From a phage, in the NCBI GenBank assembly GCA_021132495.1, contig GCA_021132495.1_4335.1: DNA of 44,086 bases. The stretch is one strand, 5' to 3'. Shown in pieces: positions 999 to 14,108 of this stretch. The position numbers and the translations under genes were made by a program. Each line of letters starts with the position of its first letter. Position 1 is the stretch's first letter. Below the pieces are notes generated by a model. That model had not been told where the DNA came from, made no database searches, and worked only from the letters and a program-made list of their open reading frames with translations.

Positions 999-1044
999 AC
1001 CATTAGCATCTTTTGTATATCAGTAACTTTGTGTGGTGTTTTGG

Positions 1045-1073
1045 TTGCTTTTACATTCACGCTATCCTATACT
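1045..1073 (+). promoter_or_regulatory. candidate sigma70 promoter TTGCTT-N17-TATACT for the plus-strand early operon
   Basis: Hexamers with 17-nt spacing about 30 nt upstream of the RBS/ATG at 1105. Confidence 0.4.
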
Positions 1074-1104
1074 CGTTTTCACCAAACAAACAGGAGATAT
1101 AAAA

Positions 1105-1287
1105 ATGCAGCATTACATGACACAGAATGAAGTGGCTGAACGTATCGGGGTGACACGTCAAACAATTAATAACTGGTTGCGCAGCGGTAAATTCCCTGAT
1201 TGCTGTATTAAGGTTATGGGTCGCCGTTTACCAGGAACATTTGACCGTAATAAAGTTGAAGCATGGATTAAGGAGAACGTGAAATGA
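1105..1287 (+). CDS. small HTH DNA-binding protein (AlpA/MerR-like)
   Basis: RBS caggag before ATG at 1105; motif EVAERIGVTRQTINNWLRSGKFP typical of AlpA/excisionase-type HTH; ORF track start at 1033 judged too far upstream. Confidence 0.6.
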   Translation: MQHYMTQNEVAERIGVTRQTINNWLRSGKFPDCCIKVMGRRLPGTFDRNKVEAWIKENVK

Positions 1288-1564: not shown

Positions 1565-1693
1565 ATGACAAAGTTAATAGTTCCACAGCTACGCCGCCAG
1601 AAACACGGCGCTGACTTCTTCGCACCGGTAAAGATGAACCGCGCAATGCGCCGTATGCAGGAAGCCTTAGAACGTGCGGAGAAAAAGAAATGA
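1565..1693 (+). CDS. small basic hypothetical protein (42 aa)
   Basis: Manual ORF with RBS aagga; stop overlaps the ATG of the next gene (ATGA). Confidence 0.3.
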   Translation: MTKLIVPQLRRQKHGADFFAPVKMNRAMRRMQEALERAEKKK

Positions 1694-3942
1694 ATATTGT
1701 TTTTGCAACGCTGCGCAACACATTCGATAAAAACCCTGTAGCGCGTGAGATGCCTCTCGAGCAGTTTGTGGAGTATGTCTGCGATACATCGAAGCGTTTA
1801 TCCGTGGATCCGTCGTGGTCTAAGGAAGAGTACGACGCTGCCAAGATTAAGCAGAAAGCTATTGCGCCTGTTGGGGGTCGCCGTAAAAGCGCTATCCTGG
1901 AAGACAGTGTGGTTAAGTTCGATTTTGACCATCTCAACCGTACTCAGTACCGCGACCTTACCCGCAAATTCAAGAACGCACCGTTCTTCAATATTCTGCA
2001 TACAACGGCATCGCATCAGCATGTGTGTAAAAACGGTGATTACGCCTTCCGCGTTCTGGTTCCGGCTCGCACGCCGTTTAACTCTAACGACGCGTGGATG
2101 GTCCAACGGGCTATTTGTGCAGAGTTAGAAATAGATGAAGCCTTGCGTGACCACTGCACGGAAGACGGCAACCGCCTTATCTATCTACCACATAGAGAGT
2201 CAAAGATAACGGTTACAGAAGGGCGTGTTATCCGTGCCGAGCGGTACATCAAGAAAGCCGAAGAGATGGGGTTGAGTAAACGTGAAGTTAAGACACTTGC
2301 CGCCGATGAGTATGGGCTTAACGCTGATATAGCGCATTTCTGCGAAGCCGAGCTTGGCCTTGACGCTTTATCTTCCGGGCGCGGGTACGAAGTCCCATGC
2401 CCTAACGAACATCTGCATACAGGCAAAGGCTCCACAAGCATCATGCTTGATGGTAAAGAAGTGCGCTTTGTGTGCCAGCATACAAACAACGGCGCTTGCA
2501 CCGAGCTTAACCGCCGACAGCATTTGGCCCTGCGTATGTGCGGCCTGCCAGACGAGCTTAACGTAGACAAGCAACCTATCAGTATTAACAGCATTCGTGC
2601 GGCTCTGCCTGATTTACCGGATGAAGAGATTGAAGAACTGCACCGCACAGAGAACGAGGAGCCTGTAACTTGCACGCTGGAAGACCTTGAAGAAGAGGAC
2701 GAGTTACCAGAACCGGTAAAGGCTGATTTCGTCGTTGAGGGGTACATGCCGTCGGATTGTATCTGGGATATTGTCGGGGAATCCGGCACGTACAAATCAT
2801 TCTATACGCTGGGGATGATGTACCTGAGCGCCGCCGGGTACCGGTTTGCGGGGGCTGACACCCAACGTTGCCACCATTTCTATATTGACGGCGAGGGTGG
2901 TGCAGCTACACGAACACGTATTGATGCACTCGCGGCTAAATATGGCGAGGAAGGTAAAGATTATGTACATGTCATCGATATGGGCGAAATACTCGCTACG
3001 CATGGTGATAAAAAAATTCCAGCTCTAATCCGCAGGATGCGCGAAACCGCAGGGGATGAACCTATTGGCATGGTTGCCTTCGACACCCTTAACCAGACGC
3101 TGGCCCTGACGATTGATAAGTTCGACGAGAACAGTTCATCAACGGCAATCGGTATGGGTAAAGTTATCGCCATCCTGAAAGAAGTGCGCGATGCAACTAA
3201 AGCCGCTGTCGGTGTCGTTCACCATACTCCGAAGGGCGGAAAGAAAGCCCGCGGCAGTGGAGCATTGTATGCGGGTGTCGACGTGGAACTGACAATCGAA
3301 CGCGCTACCGACCGTCAGATAAACGTATACCACTCTAAATTTAAGCACGGTCCTCAACAGAAGACGGTTGGCATGGTACTGGAGTCTGTACAGTTCCGTG
3401 AAGCACCGCCGCCGAAAGAGTACCGCGCGGTTGAGTTCCTCGGTAGCACAGAGGAATACGGCACAATAGTAAACCTCGACCTGCCTGAGCCGCACAAGGC
3501 GCTTGTATTGATGCCGTGGGGCTTCGAGCCATTCAAGACCGACGAGGAGAAAGAGAGGGGAGAAGGGTTAACTAACGAAGGTAAACAAAATGTACGTAAA
3601 ACCATAGAGAACGCCGTCAACAGTTCCGAGGCCACGATACTCGCGGCGTTTGAACTGGCGGAGGGGACCTACAACGGCAACGAGGGCATCACGGTATCCG
3701 CAGCGAATAAGCTCGCGCAGTCTGACCCCAACGCAAAGGCGTTTAACTCCAAAGAAGCCATAGAACGCGGGAAGATTAAGAAAATGGTTGAGGCTGGGTA
3801 TCTTGTTCCGGGTACTGACGAAAACAATCAGATAATCCCAGGCCGTTACAGACTGAACACCATGATAACAGATAACAAGATTCCGAAGACAATATACGAA
3901 CCGAATGAAATGCTGACAGTGACCGAGGAGGATTTGGAATGA
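1690..3942 (+). CDS. replicative primase-helicase-like protein (RecA/DnaB-type P-loop ATPase, Zn-binding region)
   Basis: 750 aa; Walker A GESGTYKS; Cys/His cluster CPNEHLH...CQHTNNGAC; acidic C-terminus TEEDLE. Confidence 0.6.
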   Translation: MNIVFATLRNTFDKNPVAREMPLEQFVEYVCDTSKRLSVDPSWSKEEYDAAKIKQKAIAPVGGRRKSAILEDSVVKFDFDHLNRTQYRDLTRKFKNAPFFNILHTTASHQHVCKNGDYAFRVLVPARTPFNSNDAWMVQRAICAELEIDEALRDHCTEDGNRLIYLPHRESKITVTEGRVIRAERYIKKAEEMGLSKREVKTLAADEYGLNADIAHFCEAELGLDALSSGRGYEVPCPNEHLHTGKGSTSIMLDGKEVRFVCQHTNNGACTELNRRQHLALRMCGLPDELNVDKQPISINSIRAALPDLPDEEIEELHRTENEEPVTCTLEDLEEEDELPEPVKADFVVEGYMPSDCIWDIVGESGTYKSFYTLGMMYLSAAGYRFAGADTQRCHHFYIDGEGGAATRTRIDALAAKYGEEGKDYVHVIDMGEILATHGDKKIPALIRRMRETAGDEPIGMVAFDTLNQTLALTIDKFDENSSSTAIGMGKVIAILKEVRDATKAAVGVVHHTPKGGKKARGSGALYAGVDVELTIERATDRQINVYHSKFKHGPQQKTVGMVLESVQFREAPPPKEYRAVEFLGSTEEYGTIVNLDLPEPHKALVLMPWGFEPFKTDEEKERGEGLTNEGKQNVRKTIENAVNSSEATILAAFELAEGTYNGNEGITVSAANKLAQSDPNAKAFNSKEAIERGKIKKMVEAGYLVPGTDENNQIIPGRYRLNTMITDNKIPKTIYEPNEMLTVTEEDLE

Positions 3943-4257: not shown

Positions 4258-4277
4258 AAAGGGGCTTTAAGCCCCTT
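4258..4277. terminator. bidirectional intrinsic terminator (aaggggct-tta-agcccctt)
   Basis: Perfect hairpin between convergent genes 3939..4253 (+) and 4267..4482 (-), A/T flanks. Confidence 0.6.
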
Positions 4278-4482
4278 CACCTAACGCCAGCCACTTGGCG
4301 TCTACTTCCAGAACTTCCGCCAGTTTGAACAGCGTTGCCGGGCGGACGTCCTGAGTTACTCCAAGTGCCAGTTGGTTAATCGCGCCCTGGGAAACGCCGG
4401 TCAGGGCCGCCAAACGGCGCTGGGAGATGCCGAGTTCTTTACGGCGTTGTTCTACACGGATACCTAGTTCAGATGGTTGCAT
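4267..4482 (-). CDS. XRE-family HTH transcriptional regulator (Cro/CI-like)
   Basis: 71 aa; motif ISQRRLAALTGVSQGAINQLALG; RBS aaggag; transcribed divergently from the early operon. Confidence 0.8.
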   Translation of the reverse strand: MQPSELGIRVEQRRKELGISQRRLAALTGVSQGAINQLALGVTQDVRPATLFKLAEVLEVDAKWLALGEGA

Positions 4483-4546: not shown

Positions 4547-4575
4547 TTGACATGTGAATAGTTCGCTATTATAGT
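4547..4575 (+). promoter_or_regulatory. sigma70 promoter TTGACA-N17-TATAGT with embedded palindrome AATAG-ttcg-CTATT
   Basis: Consensus -35 and near-consensus -10 at 17-nt spacing, about 30 nt upstream of the gene at 4604. Confidence 0.6.
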
Positions 4576-4603
4576 TAGCCCATACCAAACGAGAGGGGCA
4601 GAT

Positions 4604-4831
4604 ATGAACACAATAACGGGAGCCATAGCTAAAGGTTTTCTAGCAATTTTCGGAGAATCGCAGGAAGTGTGCACAAAACATAAATTTGTACTTTCTTGCG
4701 TAGTCGGGGACGAGTTTGATGGGTTCGATAAACTTGTTGTCTGCGACCATTGCGGGCAAGAAGCTATTCAACACCCAAACGGTAAATTTGAATTAATAGA
4801 CGATAGCCTTACAGAAGGCGACGGCGAGTAA
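4604..4831 (+). CDS. hypothetical Cys-containing protein (possible Zn ribbon)
   Basis: ORF track; motif CDHCGQ. Confidence 0.5.
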   Translation: MNTITGAIAKGFLAIFGESQEVCTKHKFVLSCVVGDEFDGFDKLVVCDHCGQEAIQHPNGKFELIDDSLTEGDGE

Positions 4832-4855
4832 CCCAAATAAACAGGAGAATAAATA

Positions 4856-5356
4856 ATGTTAGAGAAATTCTTAGTATTACTGGAACGTTTCGTAGTTGCG
4901 CATGAACTGATTGCTGCGAACAGTGCGAAACAAGTTGTTCAGGTTGCCACGCCGCTGGAAGTAGAGACGGTATCGTACACCAAAGAAGCGGTAGATGAGT
5001 GCGCTGAAGAAGCAACAAAAGAAATCCCGGTCGAGGGTGAAGACGTAGTTGACACTAAACCGGCGGAGGAAGAGAAGCCAAAACGCAAGCCGCGTAAAGC
5101 TAAAGTAGAGGAACCTGCGCCAGAACCGGAAGAAGAGAAAGAAGAAGTCGATTACAAGTCTCTGCGTGACCAGATTCAGGCCATCGACGATGCAATTAAT
5201 GAAGGTCCTAGCGATGCCGCGTGCGATGATTCTGATGAACTGCTGGAAGAGTTCACAGGTAAGAAGATGAAGATTGCCGCGATTAAAGACGAAGACCTGG
5301 TTGAGTACCTGGAACGCCTGACAGCAATCAAGAACAAGTATTTCGAAGAAGAATAA
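4856..5356 (+). CDS. acidic, Lys/Glu-rich hypothetical protein
   Basis: ORF track; low-complexity EEEKPKRKPRKAKVEEP region. Confidence 0.55.
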   Translation: MLEKFLVLLERFVVAHELIAANSAKQVVQVATPLEVETVSYTKEAVDECAEEATKEIPVEGEDVVDTKPAEEEKPKRKPRKAKVEEPAPEPEEEKEEVDYKSLRDQIQAIDDAINEGPSDAACDDSDELLEEFTGKKMKIAAIKDEDLVEYLERLTAIKNKYFEEE

Positions 5357-5363
5357 CTATCTC

Positions 5364-5385
5364 GCGGCCTTCGGGCCGCTTTAAC
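5364..5385 (+). terminator. candidate intrinsic terminator (gcggcc-ttcg-ggccgc + TTT)
   Basis: GC hairpin with short T run directly after the gene ending at 5356. Confidence 0.4.
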
Positions 5386-5399
5386 GGAGGGGCGGAAAT

Positions 5400-5672
5400 A
5401 TGATTTACCAACTCTACCGCGCCGTAGACAGGCGGGATAACACAGAGGCGTTGTGGCTGTTGCGTGCGCCGTCCGGTGCGCACCAGATGGAAGAGATGGC
5501 GTACTTAGGCAAAGTACCGCGTCCTAAAGATATAGGTCGTCACGTGTCGCGGATTAAACGCACGACATTCGCCAAGCCCGACTTTTATGTCTTCGAGTCG
5601 ATGTATGGATGGGCCTTACATTGCGACCACAAGACACGGCATTTAATTGACCAGTGGGAGAACAGAGCATGA
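5400..5672 (+). CDS. hypothetical protein (90 aa)
   Basis: ORF track; stop overlaps the next ATG. Confidence 0.45.
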   Translation: MIYQLYRAVDRRDNTEALWLLRAPSGAHQMEEMAYLGKVPRPKDIGRHVSRIKRTTFAKPDFYVFESMYGWALHCDHKTRHLIDQWENRA

Positions 5673-6910
5673 AACTAAAAGAACGAGGCGGCAATAATGA
5701 TGTACACGCCTTACTGTCACCGTCAGGCGCTAAAAAGTGGCTGTCATGCGCTGCGTCGCTGGCGTGTGAAAAAGATATCCCTAACACGTCGGGTAAAGCC
5801 GCTGTACTAGGAACCGCCATGCACACCATAGCTGAGGTCCATCTCAACGCCTATATACGCGGCACTGCGTTGCCGTTAGAGCGTGAAGTCGGCGCTTACG
5901 TACTGGATGAAGGCAAAGGTCAGATTAAGGCGCTAATCAGCCTGATGAAAGGCGCGGTACTGATTACGGCGGACATGATTGAGCAGGTGCGCAAGTACAC
6001 CGACTACTGCAAAGCGATTATAGACGTAGCGACTTACGCCAAGCTGGAAATGCGTGTCAATCTTACTGAGGTATTGCATCCGGGGTATGAAGGCGTTGAG
6101 ACGTTCGGAACCGCTGACCTCGTTGCTGTCCAGGAACTGGCAAACACCGACGAGCACATGCTCATTATCGGCGACCTGAAAACCGGGCGGCATCGCGTCG
6201 AAGCGAAAGAAAACAAGCAGCTTATGCTTTACGCTCTCGGTGTTTATCGTCGACTCAAGAGACGTTATAACATAACAACCGTTCGTCTGGTCATCTTCCA
6301 GCCTTACGCTGGGGGTGCGACAGAGTGGGACATCTCGGTTGAAGGACTGGAACTGTTCGCTAAGTTCGCACAGAAACGCGCGCTGTTAGCGCTTGATGCG
6401 TATTTCCGTGGCAAGAAGAACCTGAAAGCGTCGGACTTCAAGCCATCGGTAGATGGTTGTCAGTGGTGCCGGTTCTCTGAACAATGCGCTGCGCGTACAA
6501 AGACGGTTAATTCTGTACTGGCGGAAGAACTGGAAGACGACTTTGTGCTGGAACTGACGCCGGAGCAACTCGTAGCTGAGTATGAGAAGTTGCCGCTGTT
6601 GCGCCAGCACATCGACAAGGTTGAGAAAGCTATGGCGGCCGCGTTGCATTCAGGTAAGAAAGTTCCTGGTTACAAGTTGGTTGAAGGCCGCCCGGGCAAT
6701 CGTGCATGGAAAGACGCGGAGAAAGTAACAGAACTCTACGGCGACAAGCTGACTAAAGAAGTGCTCATGTCACCTACCGAAGCTGTTAAAGTCATACCGG
6801 AAGAAGAACTGAAAGACTTCATTACCCGTAAGCCAGGCGCACCATGTGTCGCAACGGCAGACGACAAACGTCCTGAGTGGAATCAGGTAACAGAGGAGGA
6901 TTTGGAATGA
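5669..6910 (+). CDS. PD-(D/E)XK exonuclease, Cas4/RecB-like, with C-terminal Cys cluster
   Basis: Motif GDLKTGRHRVEAKENKQLMLYAL (D..K..Q..Y); CQWCRFSEQC; start moved to ATG 5669 after RBS gggag; acidic C-terminus TEEDLE. Confidence 0.7.
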   Translation: MKLKERGGNNDVHALLSPSGAKKWLSCAASLACEKDIPNTSGKAAVLGTAMHTIAEVHLNAYIRGTALPLEREVGAYVLDEGKGQIKALISLMKGAVLITADMIEQVRKYTDYCKAIIDVATYAKLEMRVNLTEVLHPGYEGVETFGTADLVAVQELANTDEHMLIIGDLKTGRHRVEAKENKQLMLYALGVYRRLKRRYNITTVRLVIFQPYAGGATEWDISVEGLELFAKFAQKRALLALDAYFRGKKNLKASDFKPSVDGCQWCRFSEQCAARTKTVNSVLAEELEDDFVLELTPEQLVAEYEKLPLLRQHIDKVEKAMAAALHSGKKVPGYKLVEGRPGNRAWKDAEKVTELYGDKLTKEVLMSPTEAVKVIPEEELKDFITRKPGAPCVATADDKRPEWNQVTEEDLE

Positions 6911-7110
6911 TTCAAGTAAATGAAATGCCCACAGATAAAGATTTTGTGATGATATGGCGCTGGGGCGGTTATATCCATTCGGAATCGTTTACGTTCCTGA
7001 ACGGCACGATGGTGCGATACAACCATGTGGAGGATGAATTCGAACCCGTTGATATGAATGATTTCGAGAACATAGTCCGTATTGCGAAATTTTATTTGAC
7101 ACCTGAATAG
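6907..7110 (+). CDS. hypothetical protein (67 aa)
   Basis: ATG at 6907 after RBS gaggagga, overlapping the upstream stop. Confidence 0.45.
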   Translation: MIQVNEMPTDKDFVMIWRWGGYIHSESFTFLNGTMVRYNHVEDEFEPVDMNDFENIVRIAKFYLTPE

Positions 7111-7183: not shown

Positions 7184-7810
7184 ATGGGTATTAAACTGAA
7201 TCTGCGTAAAGTAAACACTGCTTGGGTTAACGTATTTGAACGTGAAAAAGACCGTGAAAACGATGATGGCTCAATCACTAAAGGCCAGTACAGCGCGACT
7301 ATCATCCTGCCGTCTGACCATGCTCAAATCGATGCGCTCTACGACACCGTTTACGCTGTAGTTGAAGAAGCGTTAGGCGCAGCCGCTGCCGAGAAATGGA
7401 TGAAGTCCAACTACGGTGAAGGTAAGCACATGGATAAATGCGCGATTAAAGACATTGCCGAGCGCGACAATCCGTTTGAAGACTTCCCGGAAGGCTTCTA
7501 CTTCAAAGCGAAGGCACAGAAACAGCCGCTGATTGTAACCTCTAAAAAAGGTGAGACTCAGGTAGAGCAGGACTTCAACGTAGACGGCGAACAGATTGAA
7601 GGTGAACAGGTTTACAGCGGATGCTTAGCTAACGTAAGCGTTGAAATCTGGTTCAGCCAGAAATACAAAGTCCTCGGCGTTAACCTGCTGGCGATTAAAT
7701 ACGTTGGCGAAGGCAAAGCGTTCGGCGGTTCTAAAGTCGCTGCGAGCGTCAATGACCTGGAAGACGACGAAGAAGATGAAGCACCGCGCCGCGAACGTCG
7801 CCGCCGCTAA
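7184..7810 (+). CDS. putative ssDNA-binding protein with acidic C-terminal tail
   Basis: 208 aa, directly upstream of the DNA polymerase; C-terminal DLEDDEEDE; assignment by position and composition only. Confidence 0.4.
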   Translation: MGIKLNLRKVNTAWVNVFEREKDRENDDGSITKGQYSATIILPSDHAQIDALYDTVYAVVEEALGAAAAEKWMKSNYGEGKHMDKCAIKDIAERDNPFEDFPEGFYFKAKAQKQPLIVTSKKGETQVEQDFNVDGEQIEGEQVYSGCLANVSVEIWFSQKYKVLGVNLLAIKYVGEGKAFGGSKVAASVNDLEDDEEDEAPRRERRRR

Positions 7811-7869: not shown

Positions 7870-10041
7870 ATGAGTTACCTGTTCTTAGACTTTGAAACAT
7901 TCTCAGAAGCCGATTTGAAGAAAGTCGGTTCTTACGCTTACGCCGAACACCCGTCAACCGAAGTGCTTATCTGTACATATGCTTTTGACGACGAACCTGT
8001 GCGGGTATGGGATTGCACCGACGGCAGCGACATGCCGGGGGATTTACACCGCGCACTGCGCCGCCTTGTTAAGCCCAACAGCCGCATCAAGATGGTGTGG
8101 CACAACGGTGGACTTTTCGATCGCCTAATCATGAAACACTGCTGGGACTTTGATATTCCGGTAAGTAACACCATTGATACTATGATTTGGGCGTTCCGTC
8201 ACGCGCTGCCGGGTTCTCTTGATGCGCTGTGCGAAGTGCTGGGCGTGTCTGCAGACAACGCGAAAGATAAACGCGGCAAGGCTCTGATTAAGCGTTTCTC
8301 TAAACCGACGCCGAAGAACTACAAAATCCGCCGCTACACCGCAGAAACTCACCCTGACGAGTGGGCGATGTTCATCAGGTACGCCGTGAGCGACATCACT
8401 GCGATGCGTGAAGTCTTCCATAAGCTGCCGCGTTGGGGTAACTCCGAGTTCGAAGACCGTGTACTGGAACTTGACCAGTTAATCAACGACCGCGGATTTA
8501 AGGTTGACGTCGCACTGGCGGAAGCCGCGATTGAAGCCGTAGAGAAGCACAAGGCACAGTTACAGGAAGAAGCTCAACGTAAATACGGCGGCTCGCTTAC
8601 CGGTAAAGACTTCCTTCCGATTCTGCGTGAACTTGCGCCCGCGCACCGCATACACAATGCACAGAAGTCGACGCTTAACGACCTGTTGGCAGATTATGAT
8701 TTACCGGACGACGCCCGGATGATTATCGAAATGCGCCTCGGGGCCGCGTCAACAGCGTCCACGAAATATAACCCGCTGCTGTTAGGCCGCTCGTCGGACG
8801 ACCGACGCCGCGGTTGTATCCAGTACGGTGGGGCAAAGCGTACGTTACGGTTCGCGGGTAAAGGCTTCCAGCCACAGAACCTGGCGCGTGGGTACTATCA
8901 CGATGATGAACTGGATAAAGGCATTTCAGCGTTACTTAAGGGCCGGGCGCACCGCCGATTTGACGTAGCCAAGCTAACGGCATCGACCGTTCGTAGCTGC
9001 ATCATACCGGAAGCAGGGCATAAGTTTGTCGTTGCCGATTACTCTAACGTCGAAGGCCGCGGTCTTGCGTGGCTGGCGGGTGAAGACGATTTAATCGAAG
9101 TATTTGTAAACGGGGTTGATGTGTATAAGAAACTCGCATCAACGGTGTTCAATGTTGCATATGAAGCCGTAACAAAGGACCAAAGACAAATAGCCAAAGC
9201 AATGGTTCTGGGACTCGGCTACGCGGGGGGCGTCGGTGCTTTCGTCACGTTTGCTAAAAACTTAGGTCTTGATTTGAATGACATGACTAACACTTTAGAC
9301 GGTACATTCCCGGACCATATTTGGGCCGCTACCGCACGCGGATACGAATGGGCGCGTATTCAGGAAGCCAAGCGACCACCACGTCCTGGTGAAAAAGATG
9401 ACCGACCCTCATATATCCTTGATAAGAAAGTTTGGCGCACCTGTGACGCTTTAAAGCGCATGTACCGGGAAGCTAATCCTGCAATAGTCCAATTCTGGCG
9501 CGATATTGAAGACGCAGCTATGGCAGCAATCCGTAATCCGGGGAAAGAGTTCACCGCTGGCCCTCGCGGGGTTAAGTTTTCTCGCAACGTAGAAACAGAC
9601 AACAACGGCAACAAAGTCGCGGGTTGGTGGTTGCGCATGACGTTGCCGTCAGGTCGCGTTATGTCATACCCGGGCGTCGGGTTGAGCGTGTCAAAAGAGA
9701 CAGACGAAGACGGAAAAGTTTCTACTAACGTGCGCATCAAGTATCAGGGCGAAAATCAGTTAACCAGGCAGTGGGGCTTCCAGTACACCTACTCCGGTAA
9801 ACTGGTGGAAAACTGCACTCAGGCACTGTGCCGTGATTTGCTGGCTAACGCCCTGCTGAACGTAGAGGCAAACGGCTACCCTATTGTGCTTCATGTACAC
9901 GATGAGATTATCTGCGAGACACCTGATTTACCGGAATACAATGTTGCAGAGCTTGAGCGGTTGATGTGTGAATTACCGGAATGGGCGGAGGGGTTCCCTC
10001 TTGTAGCAGAAGGTAGCGAAATGTACAGATACGCCAAGTAG
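7870..10041 (+). CDS. family A DNA polymerase with 3'-5' exonuclease domain
   Basis: 723 aa; exo motif FLDFETFS; polymerase motifs DYSNVEGR (A), KAMVLGLGYAGG (B), HVHDEI (C). Confidence 0.9.
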   Translation: MSYLFLDFETFSEADLKKVGSYAYAEHPSTEVLICTYAFDDEPVRVWDCTDGSDMPGDLHRALRRLVKPNSRIKMVWHNGGLFDRLIMKHCWDFDIPVSNTIDTMIWAFRHALPGSLDALCEVLGVSADNAKDKRGKALIKRFSKPTPKNYKIRRYTAETHPDEWAMFIRYAVSDITAMREVFHKLPRWGNSEFEDRVLELDQLINDRGFKVDVALAEAAIEAVEKHKAQLQEEAQRKYGGSLTGKDFLPILRELAPAHRIHNAQKSTLNDLLADYDLPDDARMIIEMRLGAASTASTKYNPLLLGRSSDDRRRGCIQYGGAKRTLRFAGKGFQPQNLARGYYHDDELDKGISALLKGRAHRRFDVAKLTASTVRSCIIPEAGHKFVVADYSNVEGRGLAWLAGEDDLIEVFVNGVDVYKKLASTVFNVAYEAVTKDQRQIAKAMVLGLGYAGGVGAFVTFAKNLGLDLNDMTNTLDGTFPDHIWAATARGYEWARIQEAKRPPRPGEKDDRPSYILDKKVWRTCDALKRMYREANPAIVQFWRDIEDAAMAAIRNPGKEFTAGPRGVKFSRNVETDNNGNKVAGWWLRMTLPSGRVMSYPGVGLSVSKETDEDGKVSTNVRIKYQGENQLTRQWGFQYTYSGKLVENCTQALCRDLLANALLNVEANGYPIVLHVHDEIICETPDLPEYNVAELERLMCELPEWAEGFPLVAEGSEMYRYAK

Positions 10042-10073
10042 TAGATTTAGGAAATACGTTGTAGAAAATGTAA

Positions 10074-10109
10074 ATACCGATATAATGGCTATGTCGGTAT
10101 TTTTTTTTT
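10074..10109 (+). terminator. intrinsic terminator (ataccga ... tcggtat + T9)
   Basis: 7-bp stem, 13-nt loop, nine consecutive T after the polymerase gene. Confidence 0.65.
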
Positions 10110-10119
10110 GGAGTTATTA

Positions 10120-10815
10120 ATGAAAAAGTGTTCAAGATGCGGCGAAGATAAACCGGCGACTACAGAGTATTTTTCAAAGTCAACGCGCCTCGGGCTGCAA
10201 CGCTGGTGTAAAGAGTGTGTAAATGCTAACAGGAAGGAAAAGTATGACGAAAAACTTAAATTACAAGGTAAATCCAGACGAGAAAGCCCTTGGTATGTTT
10301 TCACTGGGAAGCCTGTTAAATGCAGAAAGTGTGGGGAGGTAAAACCTTTAACAGAGGAAAACTTCAGGAAAGGAAATAAAAGTAATGGCTCTCATATCAG
10401 GAAAGATTGCCGGGAGTGTCTCAACAAGCAACGCAGGGAACTGGTGAATAAGGACCAAAGGATGCGGGCGTACGCGCTTTTGTTAGGATACAAAAGAGCA
10501 GATTCAGGAAAAGGGCTTATCTGCGATTTAACACTGGAAAGCGTTATTAAACTAATATCACAGCCATGCCATTATTGCGGAAGCACTACAAAAGTCGGGG
10601 TAGACCGCATAGATAATACAAGCGGGCACATAGTATCTAACTGCGTTTCTTGTTGTCAGACATGTAATCTTACCAGAGGACACCGGTTTACATTCATTGA
10701 AATGGTTACGGAGATAGGTCCCGCCATTAAAAGAATAAAAGCGGCGAGAGAAGTTTCACATATACCGTCTTTTCCTAATAGGTGGCCTGAAGGAGAATGT
10801 AGAGATGCCAAGTAA
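10120..10815 (+). CDS. HNH endonuclease with N-terminal Zn-ribbon repeats
   Basis: Motif CHYCGSTTKVGVDRIDNTSGHIVSNCVSCCQTCN; four CxxC pairs; start moved to ATG 10120 after RBS ggag. Confidence 0.75.
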   Translation: MKKCSRCGEDKPATTEYFSKSTRLGLQRWCKECVNANRKEKYDEKLKLQGKSRRESPWYVFTGKPVKCRKCGEVKPLTEENFRKGNKSNGSHIRKDCRECLNKQRRELVNKDQRMRAYALLLGYKRADSGKGLICDLTLESVIKLISQPCHYCGSTTKVGVDRIDNTSGHIVSNCVSCCQTCNLTRGHRFTFIEMVTEIGPAIKRIKAAREVSHIPSFPNRWPEGECRDAK

Positions 10816-10936
10816 ACTGATTATCGCGGTACTGGCGGGATTTGCTGCCGGTGTCTACTGTCACGAGGGTCAATACGGCATGATGGTTGCCATATTGGGC
10901 ATGTTCATCGCAATTTATCTGTGGGTGCTGGAATGA
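10805..10936 (+). CDS. small hydrophobic peptide (43 aa)
   Basis: Manual ORF, single predicted TM segment, coupled to flanking genes; below the ORF-track length cutoff. Confidence 0.25.
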   Translation: MPSKLIIAVLAGFAAGVYCHEGQYGMMVAILGMFIAIYLWVLE

Positions 10937-11022
10937 AAATCTACTGGTTTTATGAAGAAGACTGTCGAATCTGTCCGCGCTGCGGTACTGAACATACGAA
11001 ACGTGAGGGGTGTGTATTATGA
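10933..11022 (+). CDS. small CxxC peptide (29 aa)
   Basis: Manual ORF MKIYWFYEEDCRICPRCG...; ATGA overlaps on both sides. Confidence 0.25.
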   Translation: MKIYWFYEEDCRICPRCGTEHTKREGCVL

Positions 11023-11516
11023 AAGCACCAAGTGACGATATAAAAGATTTTCTGTCATACGACCCGGATACCGGGATATTTAAATGGGTCAAGCACAGAT
11101 GCCAGACCGCGAAACCCGGAGATGTTGTTACATACAAGGACCGTAAAGGGTACATATTGTTAGGATGGAGTAGGGTGTATTACCGCGCACACAGGCTGGC
11201 GTGGTGGTGGGTGTACGGAGAGATGCCAACTAAGCAAATAGACCATATTAACGGCATACGGGACGATAACCGGATTTGTAACCTACGGCTTGCGGATGAA
11301 TTTCAACAGAACCATAACCGCAAGACCCCAGTTACGAACACCAGCGGCGTGAAAGGGGTTAACTGGAGTAAGCCTCATAATGCTTGGTGTGCTCGAGTTG
11401 CTTTTAAAGGTACACGCTATCAGATTGGGTATTTCCAGAACCTAAATGAAGCAGAGGAATCCCTGAGAGAATTTAGGGCAAAACTGCACGGAGAGTTTTG
11501 CAACCATGGCGACTAA
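11019..11516 (+). CDS. HNH endonuclease with AP2 DNA-binding domain
   Basis: HNH motif IDHINGIRDDNRICNLRLADEFQQNHNRK; AP2-like GVKGVNWSKPHNAWCARVAFKGTRYQIGYF; ATG at 11019 after RBS gagggg. Confidence 0.8.
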   Translation: MKAPSDDIKDFLSYDPDTGIFKWVKHRCQTAKPGDVVTYKDRKGYILLGWSRVYYRAHRLAWWWVYGEMPTKQIDHINGIRDDNRICNLRLADEFQQNHNRKTPVTNTSGVKGVNWSKPHNAWCARVAFKGTRYQIGYFQNLNEAEESLREFRAKLHGEFCNHGD

Positions 11517-11793
11517 AGAGGGCCGCGTACAGAAATACGCAAAAGAGCGATTCGAGGCCATCGGGGGCCTCGTCCGTAAACTGTCTTATGAGGGGCGCTC
11601 CGGCGCTCCCGACCTGCTGGTAATTCTCCCGGGCGGCATCGTCTGGTTCGTCGAGGTGAAGAAAGACGAAAGCACGAAGCCTGACCCACACCAGTTACGA
11701 GAGCATGAGCGGATGCGTAAACGTGGTGCGAATGTTTTTGTCGTCGGGTCGTTCAAACAGGTTGACGACCTAATAGCGAACTATTATAGTTAG
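11506..11793 (+). CDS. VRR-NUC domain nuclease
   Basis: 95 aa; PDLLVI...VWFVEVKKDESTKPDPHQ consistent with the VRR-NUC D/E-K core. Confidence 0.6.
   Translation: MATKEGRVQKYAKERFEAIGGLVRKLSYEGRSGAPDLLVILPGGIVWFVEVKKDESTKPDPHQLREHERMRKRGANVFVVGSFKQVDDLIANYYS
11762..11790 (+). promoter_or_regulatory. sigma70 promoter TTGACG-N17-TATAGT with embedded palindrome AATAG-cgaa-CTATT
   Basis: Same architecture as 4547 and 7096; overlaps the 3' end of the VRR-NUC gene. Confidence 0.55.
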
Positions 11794-11823
11794 CCCTACA
11801 CCAACAATATAAGGAATTGATAG

Positions 11824-12015
11824 ATGAAATACGAATATGACCGTAAACCAGCACGTGGCATCGTACCGGGCGACATGATTTTCAACGTTAAGACCCGTCG
11901 GCCTGTTGCCGTGGATACGGTGTTCGTCGAGTCGAACGGTAAACTGGTTATCGAAGACGTAACTGGCAACGTTACCGCGTTCGGGCGTAAAGAGCTTGTT
12001 CTGGTGGCAAAATGA
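11824..12015 (+). CDS. hypothetical protein (63 aa)
   Basis: ORF track; RBS aaggaa. Confidence 0.45.
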   Translation: MKYEYDRKPARGIVPGDMIFNVKTRRPVAVDTVFVESNGKLVIEDVTGNVTAFGRKELVLVAK

Positions 12016-13436
12016 GTAAGTTTCAAAGGCGCGAATATCAGAAGCTCATGACTTCGTTCATGCTACAGCATCCGCGCTGTAATATCTGGTGCGGCATGGG
12101 AGGGGGCAAAACCTCCTCAACTATGTGGGTGCTTAATCGCCTGTTTCGCAACGGGCAGCTTACAGAAGATGACCGCGTGTTAATCCTCGCCCCGTTACGT
12201 GTTGCGTCCGGTACGTGGCCCGCTGAACAAGAGAAATGGCAATTCCCTTGTCTGCGTGTCGTAGATGCAACTGGTTCGGAGAAGCGCCGCATCGCAGCGC
12301 TGGAGTCAGATGCTAACGTGGTGTGCACTAACTACGAAGTTATCGAGTGGCTAATTGACTACTACGGCAAAGACGACTGGCCTTTTACGGTTATCGTTGC
12401 CGATGAAAGCACGAAGCTTAAATCGTTCCGCAGCCGTTCGGGTGGTAGCAAGCGGGCAAAGGCGCTCAGCAAGGTTGCGTTCGGAAAGGTTAAGCGTTTC
12501 ATCAACCTGACAGGCACACCGTCACCAAACGGCCTCAAAGACTTGTGGGGTCAGAACTGGTTTATCGACGCTGGCGAGCGCCTCGGCTCTTCGTACACAG
12601 CATTCACCGACCGCTGGTTTAACTCGGTACAGAAAGGTAAATCGGCTATGGCCCGCGAGTATCATGCACGACCGGGTGCGGATAATGAGATTCATCAGAA
12701 GATGAAAGACATCAGCCTGACCATAGACCCTGCCGAGTGGTTTGGTTGTGAAGCGCCTGTTATCGTACCGGTGGAAATAGACCTGCCGAAGAAAGCGCGT
12801 CAGGCGTACATAGATATGGAGGAGAAGTTATTCGCAGAACTGGAGAGCGGGGAAGTTGAAGCGGCTAACGCTGCGGCGAAGACCTCAAAGTGCTTGCAGA
12901 TTGCATCTGGTGCCGTGTATGTGTCGGGGCCGGATGGCGAAGCGACCAAAGACTGGGAGAAAGTGCACGACACGAAACTGGATGCGCTCGAGTCGATTGT
13001 TGAGGAGTTGCAGGGTGCGCCGTTGCTGGTAGCCTATCAGTTTAAACACGAACTGGAGCGTATCCTTAAGCGATTCCCACAGGCACAGGCGTTCGCCAAA
13101 GGCGCTAGGGGGAACAAGCAGATGGAAGCGTGGAACCGTGGGGAAATCGAGATTTTATGCGTGCATCCTGCGTCAGCCGGGCATGGTTTGAATTTACAGG
13201 ACGGGGGTCATCATCTGGCGTTCATCTCGCAAGGCTGGAACCTTGAGCACTATTTGCAGGTTGTTGAGCGCATAGGCCCAGTCCGCCAGAAACAGGCGGG
13301 TCACGAGCGCCCGGTGTTCCTTTATCACATCGTTGCTAAAGACACTCTGGACGAGGTTGTCGCCGCGCGTACCGACGAGAAGAAATCGGTACAGGAAGAG
13401 TTGCTTAATTACATGAAGAGACGAGGTAAGAAATGA
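12012..13436 (+). CDS. SNF2-family helicase
   Basis: DExx box IVADEST; motif GTPSPNGLKDLW; C-terminal helicase motifs. Confidence 0.8.
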   Translation: MSKFQRREYQKLMTSFMLQHPRCNIWCGMGGGKTSSTMWVLNRLFRNGQLTEDDRVLILAPLRVASGTWPAEQEKWQFPCLRVVDATGSEKRRIAALESDANVVCTNYEVIEWLIDYYGKDDWPFTVIVADESTKLKSFRSRSGGSKRAKALSKVAFGKVKRFINLTGTPSPNGLKDLWGQNWFIDAGERLGSSYTAFTDRWFNSVQKGKSAMAREYHARPGADNEIHQKMKDISLTIDPAEWFGCEAPVIVPVEIDLPKKARQAYIDMEEKLFAELESGEVEAANAAAKTSKCLQIASGAVYVSGPDGEATKDWEKVHDTKLDALESIVEELQGAPLLVAYQFKHELERILKRFPQAQAFAKGARGNKQMEAWNRGEIEILCVHPASAGHGLNLQDGGHHLAFISQGWNLEHYLQVVERIGPVRQKQAGHERPVFLYHIVAKDTLDEVVAARTDEKKSVQEELLNYMKRRGKK

Positions 13437-13948
13437 TGGATTTCGAAGAGTTTCTACTTAAAGCTCATCTGCTGGCGCGTGGGTTTGACGCTGACCGTCT
13501 CCAGGTAGTCTTAGCCCCTGGAGTAGCTACGTTTTACCTGTGGGGGTTTGACGGCAGGCTACGAGGATACCAGCATTACAAGCCGCATGCTGAAAAGAAC
13601 TGTAAAAACCCTAAAGACGCGCGGTACTTTACCCGAACAACAAGGCCGTGTTTATGGGGACTTGAGTATTTGCCAAGTAGCGGGGTGGTATTTGTTACCG
13701 AAAGCATATTTAAAGCTGTTGCTTTGATGAATTGCGGGTTTAATGCAGTTAGCGCATTGGGGTCGAACATACCAGCTGACTTACGGCAGCAAATGTCACT
13801 TTTGCCGTATGACTGGGTGTGCGCTGGCGACAATGATAAAGCTGGATTAAAGTTCAGCAAAACATTCACCAGAGGATTTGTATCTAACGACCTTGATGAA
13901 CTTTGTGAAGAAGAAATAACGTATCTTGCGAGGAAATTTACCAGATGA
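13433..13948 (+). CDS. Toprim-domain protein (primase-like)
   Basis: VFVTESIFKA (Glu) and CAGDNDKAG (DxD) resemble Toprim catalytic motifs. Confidence 0.45.
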   Translation: MMDFEEFLLKAHLLARGFDADRLQVVLAPGVATFYLWGFDGRLRGYQHYKPHAEKNCKNPKDARYFTRTTRPCLWGLEYLPSSGVVFVTESIFKAVALMNCGFNAVSALGSNIPADLRQQMSLLPYDWVCAGDNDKAGLKFSKTFTRGFVSNDLDELCEEEITYLARKFTR

Positions 13949-14082
13949 ACATCATAGCCCCAATTCCGGCATTGCAAAAACGTATCAAGGAACTCGAAGA
14001 AGAGGTTCTGCGGCTACGTCAGCAAAGAGACGCCGCTAATGCGCAACTGGCGTTTGTACTGGAGAAGTTATCAGAAGAGTAG
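13945..14082 (+). CDS. small coiled-coil protein (45 aa)
   Basis: Manual ORF with ATGA overlap; heptad-like KRIKELEEEVLRLRQQ. Confidence 0.3.
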   Translation: MNIIAPIPALQKRIKELEEEVLRLRQQRDAANAQLAFVLEKLSEE

Positions 14083-14086
14083 AGGA

Positions 14087-14108
14087 AAGGCCCCGTTTGG
14101 GGGCCTTG
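14087..14108. terminator. bidirectional terminator (aaggcccc-gttt-gggggcctt)
   Basis: Perfect GC hairpin between convergent plus early genes and the minus tailspike gene. Confidence 0.55.

Follow-up and report, generated by a model that had tools for sequence, protein, structure and literature searches.

We analyzed a 44,086-nucleotide phage sequence (contig GCA_021132495.1_4335.1 of GenBank assembly GCA_021132495.1; hereafter the window, by which we mean this whole stretch), and in particular its region 10120-13948, where a preliminary description made from the letters alone had noted a dense cluster of nuclease and helicase genes next to the DNA polymerase gene. Taken as a whole, our results make it likely that this region is a replication/recombination module in which a conserved core is interspersed with accessory cassettes that sit in fixed slots between genes. 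Two of these cassettes carry HNH genes, HNH1 and HNH2, and the view that they are free-standing homing-type endonuclease cassettes is well supported, with nuclease activity and homing themselves inferred. Another encodes a 171-amino-acid (aa) Toprim protein that we assign to the Rad family and that is most likely an anti-retron factor rather than the phage primase; by its motifs and domains, a 750-aa protein encoded upstream is most likely the replicative primase-helicase. Nothing in this picture is categorically new: the module is of a known phage type, and so are the kinds of mobile and accessory genes that it contains. Its useful outcomes are exact cassette boundaries, a map of five slots, a Toprim gene reread as a Rad-family anti-retron candidate and a protein family recognized as whole primase cores that lack a zinc finger.

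The replication module and its variable slots

In a megablast search the region 7800-14100 matches 455 phage records, nearly all of them Guernseyvirinae (Escherichia Kagunavirus and Salmonella Jerseyvirus). The best overall matches of the window are Escherichia phages SHAK7858 and 22664BS2, which are 94% and 96% identical to its first 25 kb over 79-85% of the length. On this basis we identify the window, by sequence comparison, as the complete genome (about 44 kb) of a siphophage from a known group, Kagunavirus-like Guernseyvirinae. We aligned the region with seven annotated relatives: Bas72, SHAK7858, Golestan, EM1, KMB35, SETP3 and Kenya-K22. The core gene order is the same in all seven, and the invariant backbone reads exonuclease, small open reading frame (ORF), single-stranded DNA-binding protein (SSB), family-A polymerase (PolA), ORF43, ORF29, VRR-NUC nuclease, ORF63, SNF2 helicase, ORF45, terminator and a convergent tailspike gene. 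The six genes named in the preliminary description all lie on the plus strand where it had placed them, and domain searches support the assignment of each.

Between the backbone genes lie slots whose contents vary from phage to phage. The slot upstream of the polymerase gene holds an HNH gene in EM1 and small ORFs in Bas72 and Golestan, and is empty in the window; the one between the polymerase stop codon and the start of ORF43 holds HNH1 in the window, KMB35 and Bas72-74. HNH2 occupies the slot between ORF29 and the VRR-NUC gene in the window, EM1, KMB36, SETP3, SETP7 and many Kenyan Jerseyviruses, and a 50-aa ORF takes this place in SHAK7858. The slot between ORF63 and the SNF2 gene (12010-12015) holds a gene for a C5 cytosine methyltransferase in Golestan, Bas72 and KMB35 and another HNH gene, its second, in EM1; nothing occupies it in the window, so that the presumed anti-restriction methylase is lacking in this phage. 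Downstream of the SNF2 gene, the Toprim gene is found in the window, SHAK7858, Golestan and Kenya-K22, unrelated ORFs of 61-64 aa are found in Bas72, KMB35 and EM1, and SETP3 has nothing. Further selfish elements are hosted by the same module, namely the extra HNH genes of EM1 and an intein in the SETP3 helicase. The latter protein (4561-7026 in SETP3) is 821 aa long and has an annotated Hint/intein domain, and the insertion of about 1.07 kb in its gene falls between positions equivalent to 12089 and 12116 of the window.

The replication operon of these phages can be seen as having at least five fixed slots in which homing endonucleases, inteins, a methyltransferase and anti-defense genes come and go. 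KMB35 and Bas72-74 have HNH1 and lack HNH2 and the Rad-type gene, SHAK7858 has only the Rad-type gene, and EM1 has only HNH2. Natural isolates with and without each cassette, such as the BASEL phages Bas70-76, constitute a direct test system for homing and co-conversion. We also considered the cluster as a defense or DISARM-like system and rejected this idea, the matches of the SNF2 protein to DrmD and ZorD being far below the cut-offs.

The HNH cassettes and the case for homing

The HNH1 cassette is a 764-bp insert on the plus strand (10041..10804) that is absent from most relatives and is bounded by a repeat of about 10 nt of the polymerase 3′ end; its exact boundaries were fixed against SHAK7858, Golestan and EM1. 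In phages without HNH1 the polymerase stop codon overlaps the ATG of ORF43. In the window, this ancestral polymerase 3′ end (…GATGCCAAGTAA), including the ATG of ORF43, closes the HNH1 ORF (10120..10815, plus strand), and the polymerase gene ends instead in a second copy that has been recoded, its last 27 nt differing from the HNH1-less alleles at about 12 positions (C-terminus …EGSEMYRYAK vs …EGAEMKRYAK). The cassette brings in a GGAG ribosome-binding site at 10110, ahead of HNH1, and upstream of the gene it contains a terminator-like hairpin of 13 bp followed by a T run (10072..10109, plus strand; centroid -14.1 kcal/mol, z -3.1). A σ70-like TTGTAG-16-TATAAT was seen by eye upstream of HNH1; we claim no promoter there, because it is missing from the output of the promoter scan and shares sequence with the hairpin. 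Of 447 matching records, 4 contain HNH1, at 98.7-99.8% identity, and a tract of about 100% identity with Bas72 and KMB35 extends from about 9990 to 11016, with the polymerase gene further upstream at about 90%. Rarity, a repeat-bounded insert and this identity tract together mark HNH1 as a mobile cassette.

The HNH1 protein had been described as a Zn-ribbon HNH endonuclease, and the searches lend this description some support. It is a putative endonuclease VII/PacI-like HNH nuclease in which two N-terminal zinc-ribbon repeats (CxxC...CxxC) precede a C-terminal CxxC...DRID...N...CxxC. It matches PHROG 1035 (E 9e-30) and has weak PDB matches to the HNH domain of 9k32 (E 0.07) and to PacI (E 0.14).

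HNH2 (11019..11516, plus strand) encodes an HNH_3-type free-standing endonuclease of 165 aa (Pfam HNH_3, PF13392, 46.6 bits against a cut-off of 24.8; PHROG 99, E 3e-65). Its true start is the ATG at 11019, its product is on record as UGI01122.1, and the ββα-metal motif (DH..N..N) is seen as QIDHINGIRDDNRICNLR. The cassette boundaries, 11017-11517, are exact. HNH2 occurs in 55 of 445 records across both genera and is 94.6% identical to its counterpart in SETP3 and 98.4% identical to that in EM1, compared with 85-91% in the flanks; it is thus sporadic at one fixed site among close relatives and better conserved than the sequence around it. The protein had been proposed to be an HNH-AP2 endonuclease. 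The HNH half of that label stood; the C-terminal AP2-type DNA-binding domain was detected by no model and confirmed by no tool, with no Pfam AP2 match at E<=10 and no PDB sequence match. A BLASTP comparison with the AP2 domain of AtERF1 gave an alignment in register at E 0.098.

Taken together, the fixed site, the patchy distribution, conservation of the cassette above its flanks, the divergent patch at the junction and the neighboring inteins and HNH genes argue for homing-type endonuclease genes, and the acquisition by homing suggested in the preliminary description gains support from the exact, fixed junctions in relatives. That description had the two HNH genes flanking replication genes; they in fact lie side by side between the polymerase and VRR-NUC genes, two tiny ORFs apart. 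We envision a scenario in which, upon co-infection, each HNH protein would cut or nick the allele that lacks its cassette, close to the site where that cassette inserts, the likely targets being the junction between the polymerase 3′ end and ORF43 for HNH1 and the ORF29/VRR-NUC junction for HNH2. Repair by recombination would then carry the cassette, together with part of the sequence around it, into the recipient, and the carrier allele would be shielded by the recoded polymerase 3′ end next to HNH1.

Several points weigh against this scenario. Cleavage and homing are putative for both HNH proteins, and the higher identity of the cassettes could have arisen by ordinary mosaic recombination rather than by endonuclease-driven homing. 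HNH1 matched no Pfam model at threshold, HNH models included, and its catalytic motif, VDRID, has an Arg at the canonical first His. The two proteins might, alternatively, be domesticated enzymes of the phage life cycle that resolve branches in the manner of T4 endonuclease VII, degrade host or competitor DNA or help in packaging. Such a role would fit the annotation "endonuclease VII" of the PHROG into which HNH1 falls and the translational coupling of both genes into the replication operon, and the nearest HNH1 relatives beyond the four Kagunaviruses, which are about 49% identical and occur in some Dhillonviruses, likewise adjoin a VRR-NUC gene. However, an enzyme of the life cycle would hardly be expected to be missing from most relatives, all of which already have a dedicated resolvase in VRR-NUC, and domestication sits poorly with cassettes more conserved than their flanks and with the intein and extra HNH genes that fill neighboring slots in other phages. 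We regard it as quite unlikely, and favor homing-type endonucleases as the explanation of both cassettes.

The Toprim gene, Rad and the question of priming

The last of the accessory genes (13433..13948, plus strand; variable cassette 13437-13944) encodes the 171-aa Rad-type protein, a minimal DnaG-type RNA-polymerase domain composed of an N-terminal subdomain and a Toprim domain. In line with the preliminary description of a stand-alone Toprim protein, it reaches exactly the cut-off of Pfam Toprim_2 (22.1 bits) and matches PHROG 849 at E 1.7e-48. In a family alignment E90, D133-x-D135 and D153-x-D155-E156 are invariant, and the N-terminal half is conserved as well. PDB sequence searches gave only non-significant alignments to DnaG, and the fold was settled by a fold search, in which the whole protein superimposes on the RNA-polymerase domains of DnaG, T7 gp4 and Twinkle. 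The stand-alone nuclease domains of RNase M5 and of OLD-type proteins were rejected as models, since they align over about 88 residues only. The protein has the RNA-polymerase domain fold and the Toprim acidic residues of a DnaG-type primase. Its N-terminus precedes the first strand of the RNA-polymerase domain by about 25 residues, with no Cys/His cluster that could form an N-terminal zinc-binding domain, and it stops right after the Toprim fold, leaving no helicase or helicase-interaction domain.

The key to its likely function is a homolog in the T5-like phage SP15. ORF75 of this phage is Rad, a 189-aa protein with "primase/helicase and TOPRIM/RNase" matches that rescues phages from several retrons, lowers the levels of retron non-coding RNA (ncRNA) and msDNA (multicopy single-stranded DNA), and is weakened by mutations at R13, P33, I88, D135 and E156 (Azam et al., bioRxiv 10.1101/2023.03.15.532788). 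The peer-reviewed version reports ORF75 as the determinant of evasion of retron-Eco2 and Eco7 (Nat Commun 2024, PMC11555353). In the SP15 record (AP019559), ORF75 is E0157_075, 189 aa, at the edge of a tRNA-rich region. The window protein is 47% identical to it over the full length (BLASTP, E 6e-38). The five mutated residues map onto the T5-like homolog Th1 gp064 at a constant offset of 17, and the window protein has R16, Y35, V88, D135 and E156 at these positions, three identical, one conservative and one changed. Moreover, T5-like phages shown in the island figure of Azam et al. (AKFV33, KPP2018 and VSe12) are among the tblastn matches to the window protein. The full-length identity places the window protein in the Rad family by homology. 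Instead of priming, it would block retron defense, reportedly by lowering retron ncRNA and msDNA.

Its distribution was examined by tblastn. At 80% identity or more the protein is present in about 64 phage records, compared with about 450 relatives that have the flanking genes, and 422 more distant copies come mainly from T5-like phages and Erwinia jumbo phages; other phages have small, unrelated ORFs in the slot. A Jerseyvirus copy matches the gene at 95.5% identity although its flanks are just 74-91% identical, and the SHAK7858 copy matches it at only 95.1% although the SHAK7858 flanks are 99-100% identical. Judged by these figures, it has been exchanged independently of its flanks. An exhaustive profile search placed 617 cluster representatives in the family. 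Most of these stand alone and are 165-190 aa long. A few have a fusion partner, which is a DUF3268 zinc finger, a CCA-adding enzyme with HD, a Mom-family domain, GNAT plus Arr, a cytidylyltransferase or a HAD hydrolase; in some of these cases gene calling on metagenomic contigs may have run through from one gene into the next. The Rad homolog of Erwinia phage Simmy50 is split into two ORFs.

The preliminary description had asked which of two proteins primes, the Toprim protein or the primase-helicase. That question started from a wrong premise, the former being the product of an accessory cassette and a Rad homolog with no zinc-binding domain; and because most relatives lack its gene, the gene is probably dispensable for replication. 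The 750-aa protein (1690..3942, plus strand), whose position is conserved across the subfamily, has an N-terminus resembling the BT4734-like archaeo-eukaryotic primases (AEPs), followed by a zinc motif and, at residues 328-517, by a RepA/AAA_25 helicase (Pfam AAA_25, E 2e-20; PHROG 3228, "replicative helicase-primase"). In an alignment of six sequences at 28-38% identity, including Dhillonvirus Envy, eiAU, Tsm2, SenTO17 and VLCpiS11a, D78 and D80 (VVKFDFD), H111, D154 and the Cys/His set of the zinc motif (C237..H243..C262-x-H264..C270; pattern C-P-N..H...C-x-H...C) are invariant; the Asp and His residues that precede the zinc motif fit the pattern of AEP motifs I (hhhDhD), II (sxH) and III (hD) (PMC5862659). 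The AEP superfamily includes the BT4734-like family, and phages and plasmids commonly encode AEP-zinc-RepA fusions (Kazlauskas et al. 2018, PMC5862659). In addition, the relative VLCpiS11a (28% identity) scores 28.4 bits with Pfam PF08800 (BT4734-like_N), whose cut-off is 22.4. With a RepA-type helicase joined to AEP-primase motifs and a zinc motif, the 750-aa protein is the most likely candidate for the enzyme that would both unwind and prime.

The case for the 750-aa protein has its weak side. The AEP assignment is transitive, running through the motifs and through the PF08800 match of a 28%-identical relative, and the N-terminal 335 residues of the window protein have no Pfam or PDB match in sequence and profile searches. 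An AlphaFold2 model of these residues, built from an alignment of near-identical sequences only, had a predicted local distance difference test score of 38.6 and was unusable because the alignment held too little sequence diversity; a homologous-protein search with the domain returned 2 matches only. As a separate observation, only 43 phage records share this version of the N-terminal domain (1690-2694) at 95% identity or more; after these come the versions of Dhillonviruses (37-39%) and of other Guernseyvirinae (about 28%), from which it follows that the primase domain has been swapped within the subfamily. Dhillonviruses hold the nearest relatives of both this domain and HNH1.

Could the Toprim protein nevertheless be a working DNA primase, lagging-strand or auxiliary, that relies in trans on the 750-aa protein for a zinc motif or on the SNF2 helicase as a partner? 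Automated annotation calls it "DNA primase", its superposition on the primase domains extends beyond Toprim to the whole protein, and its metal-binding acidic residues are invariant, as is an N-terminal (K/R)-Y-F-T motif; its gene overlaps the SNF2 helicase gene at the stop codon of the latter, and some family members have the N-terminal zinc finger DUF3268. Against this, the protein has neither a zinc-binding nor a helicase-binding domain, and its gene is missing from most relatives that share the polymerase, helicase and primase-helicase, so it is inessential for replication. Furthermore, its T5-like homolog lies in a tRNA-rich accessory region outside the replication module and was identified genetically as an anti-retron factor. 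We consider a primase role unlikely. Still less do we expect a Toprim nuclease directed at something else, for instance at nucleic acid of the host or of a competitor or at the processing of tRNA, with no link to retrons in this phage. The CCA-adding enzyme, Mom-family and nucleotidyltransferase domains to which some family members are fused, or next to which they lie, could be read in this way, but some of the fusions may be run-throughs of gene calling, the best structural matches are primase domains across the full protein length, and retron evasion is the sole genetic result for the family. This alternative strikes us as very unlikely.

Some points nonetheless count against an anti-retron role. 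Function is transferred here across 47% identity, P33 of Rad is a Tyr in the window protein, and the peer-reviewed study calls the mechanism of ORF75 undetermined, the claim of ncRNA degradation appearing in the preprint only (PMC11555353). How Rad proteins work may also be seen differently. Being whole DnaG-type primase cores without a zinc finger, they might act by primase chemistry or binding of single-stranded DNA (on msDNA or ncRNA, or by RNA synthesis) rather than as simple RNases, and in Kagunaviruses perhaps also as an auxiliary primase coupled to SNF2; we hold this to be a doubtful proposition. A lead on Rad, whose mechanism the peer-reviewed paper left open, does come from the fold, in that the family comprises a whole primase catalytic core and not merely a Toprim nuclease domain. 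On balance, we favor the Rad-family anti-retron reading of the 171-aa protein. The database label "DNA primase" on the small Toprim protein of Kagunaviruses and Jerseyviruses more likely marks an accessory anti-retron gene, and relabeling it changes how these phages, which are therapeutic candidates, are to be read.

Core genes, the genome and known systems

The conserved core can be assigned by homology. The exonuclease (5669..6910, plus strand) matches Pfam DUF2800 (E 5e-68) and PDDEXK_1 (E 1e-9) as well as PHROG 69 ("exonuclease"), and a C...CxxCx5C cysteine set is seen in its translation (CQWCRFSEQC); core and cysteines bear out the earlier view of a Cas4-like PD-(D/E)XK enzyme with a predicted Fe-S cluster. 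It is followed by a gp2.5-like/Enc34-type ssDNA-binding and annealing protein (7184..7810, plus strand; Pfam Enc34_ssDNA-bd, E 4e-16; PHROG 112) and by the 723-aa family-A DNA polymerase (7870..10041, plus strand; Pfam DNA_pol_A, E 7e-22; PHROG 17). A patch of the polymerase gene at 9050-9300 is 43-68% identical to Bas72 and KMB35, compared with 85-100% around it, a mosaic segment in an essential gene. The SETP3 polymerase is 1032 aa long compared with 723 aa in the window and may carry an insert too.

Two small conserved genes separate the HNH cassettes, ORF43 (10805..10936, plus strand), which encodes a hydrophobic protein of 43 aa, and ORF29 (10933..11022, plus strand), whose 29-aa product has a CxxC..C motif and whose stop codon overlaps the start codon of HNH2 (ATGA). 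The counterpart of ORF29 in KMB35 is labeled "HNH endonuclease" though it is far too short for one. The VRR-NUC gene (11506..11793, plus strand) encodes a nuclease of the Holliday-junction-resolvase type. Its product scores 19 bits against Pfam VRR_NUC, under the cut-off of 23.8, yet is about 90% identical over 93 residues to PDB 4QBN (phmmer, E 3.9e-54) and contains the sequence PD...EVK. PDB 4QBN is saNUC of Salmonella phage SETP3, a dimer with weak Holliday-junction cleavage in vitro (Pennell et al. 2014, PMC4103454), and we assign the window protein as a stand-alone-domain homolog of this characterized dimeric resolvase, in agreement with its earlier identification. ORF63 (11824..12015, plus strand; 63 aa; PHROG 4879) precedes the SNF2-family helicase/translocase gene (12012..13436, plus strand), which lacks an intein. 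The SNF2 label proposed earlier withstood the searches (Pfam SNF2-rel_dom, E 6e-13; PHROG 62, E 7e-167); Helicase_C reaches 19.5 bits (E 0.0012), under its cut-off of 23.5, and the motifs GMGGGKT and ADEST are present, consistent with an N-terminal ATPase lobe and a helicase C-terminal lobe. The operon ends with ORF45 (13945..14082, plus strand), a conserved, coiled-coil-like protein of 45 aa, and a GC-rich, terminator-like hairpin with a T-rich tail (14087..14107, plus strand) separates it from the convergent tailspike gene. In the module as we picture it, PolA would copy DNA, the gp2.5-like protein and the Cas4-like DUF2800 exonuclease would process and anneal ends, the VRR-NUC dimer would resolve branched intermediates, and the SNF2 ATPase would remodel DNA or translocate on it.

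For the genome as a whole, no record identical to the window was found in the phage collection searched, no match was found in RefSeq complete E. coli genomes or PLSDB, and an Rfam scan of the whole window returned no family. In GenBank the window, with its 44,086 bp, is filed under E. coli as a "plasmid" (proteins UGI01112.1, UGI01122.1 and UGI01126.1); the content of this record is that of a complete, virulent-type phage, which may have been carried in the sequenced isolate or have contaminated it. Two small ORFs, called by reading translations only, resemble helix-turn-helix proteins. One (4267-4482, minus strand) is of the Cro/CI type, 71 aa long, and lies inside an otherwise plus-strand early region; the other (1033-1287, plus strand) has 84 aa and an AlpA/excisionase-like motif.

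Each part of the module has counterparts in known systems. The replication modules of other Guernseyvirinae (K1G, Golestan and Bas70-76 of Kagunavirus; SETP3 of Jerseyvirus) have the same gene order and are 85-96% identical in DNA; the window differs in that HNH1, HNH2 and the Rad-type gene occur together and the methyltransferase slot is empty, a combination seen in no other record inspected. HNH1 has a putative CxxC-flanked ββα-type motif like that of endonuclease VII/PacI-like ββα-metal nucleases and departs from them in its Arg for the first His and its two extra zinc-ribbon repeats, whereas HNH2 has the HNH_3 motif of I-HmuI-like free-standing phage homing endonucleases. Like free-standing phage HNH homing endonucleases, both HNH genes are intergenic, sporadic and located beside essential replication genes. 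VRR-NUC is the ortholog of SETP3 saNUC from a sister genus, with the E-PD-ExK active site kept and no difference of note. As in the AEP-RepA primase-helicase fusions of phages and plasmids, motifs I, II and III of the 750-aa protein are followed by the zinc motif and the RepA/AAA_25 helicase; its N-terminal domain differs in having no Pfam or PDB match of its own. The 171-aa protein is 16-23% identical to DnaG-type primases (E. coli and B. subtilis DnaG, T7 gp4 and the N-terminal domain of Twinkle), which in contrast to it have a zinc-binding domain and a helicase or helicase-binding domain. Its counterpart among the anti-retron proteins is SP15 ORF75/Rad, from which it differs in length (171 compared with 189 aa) and in location, at the end of a replication operon rather than in a tRNA-rich island. 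The two are of the same size class, both are accessory, and the Arg, Asp and Glu at the mutated positions are kept, with Val in place of Ile.

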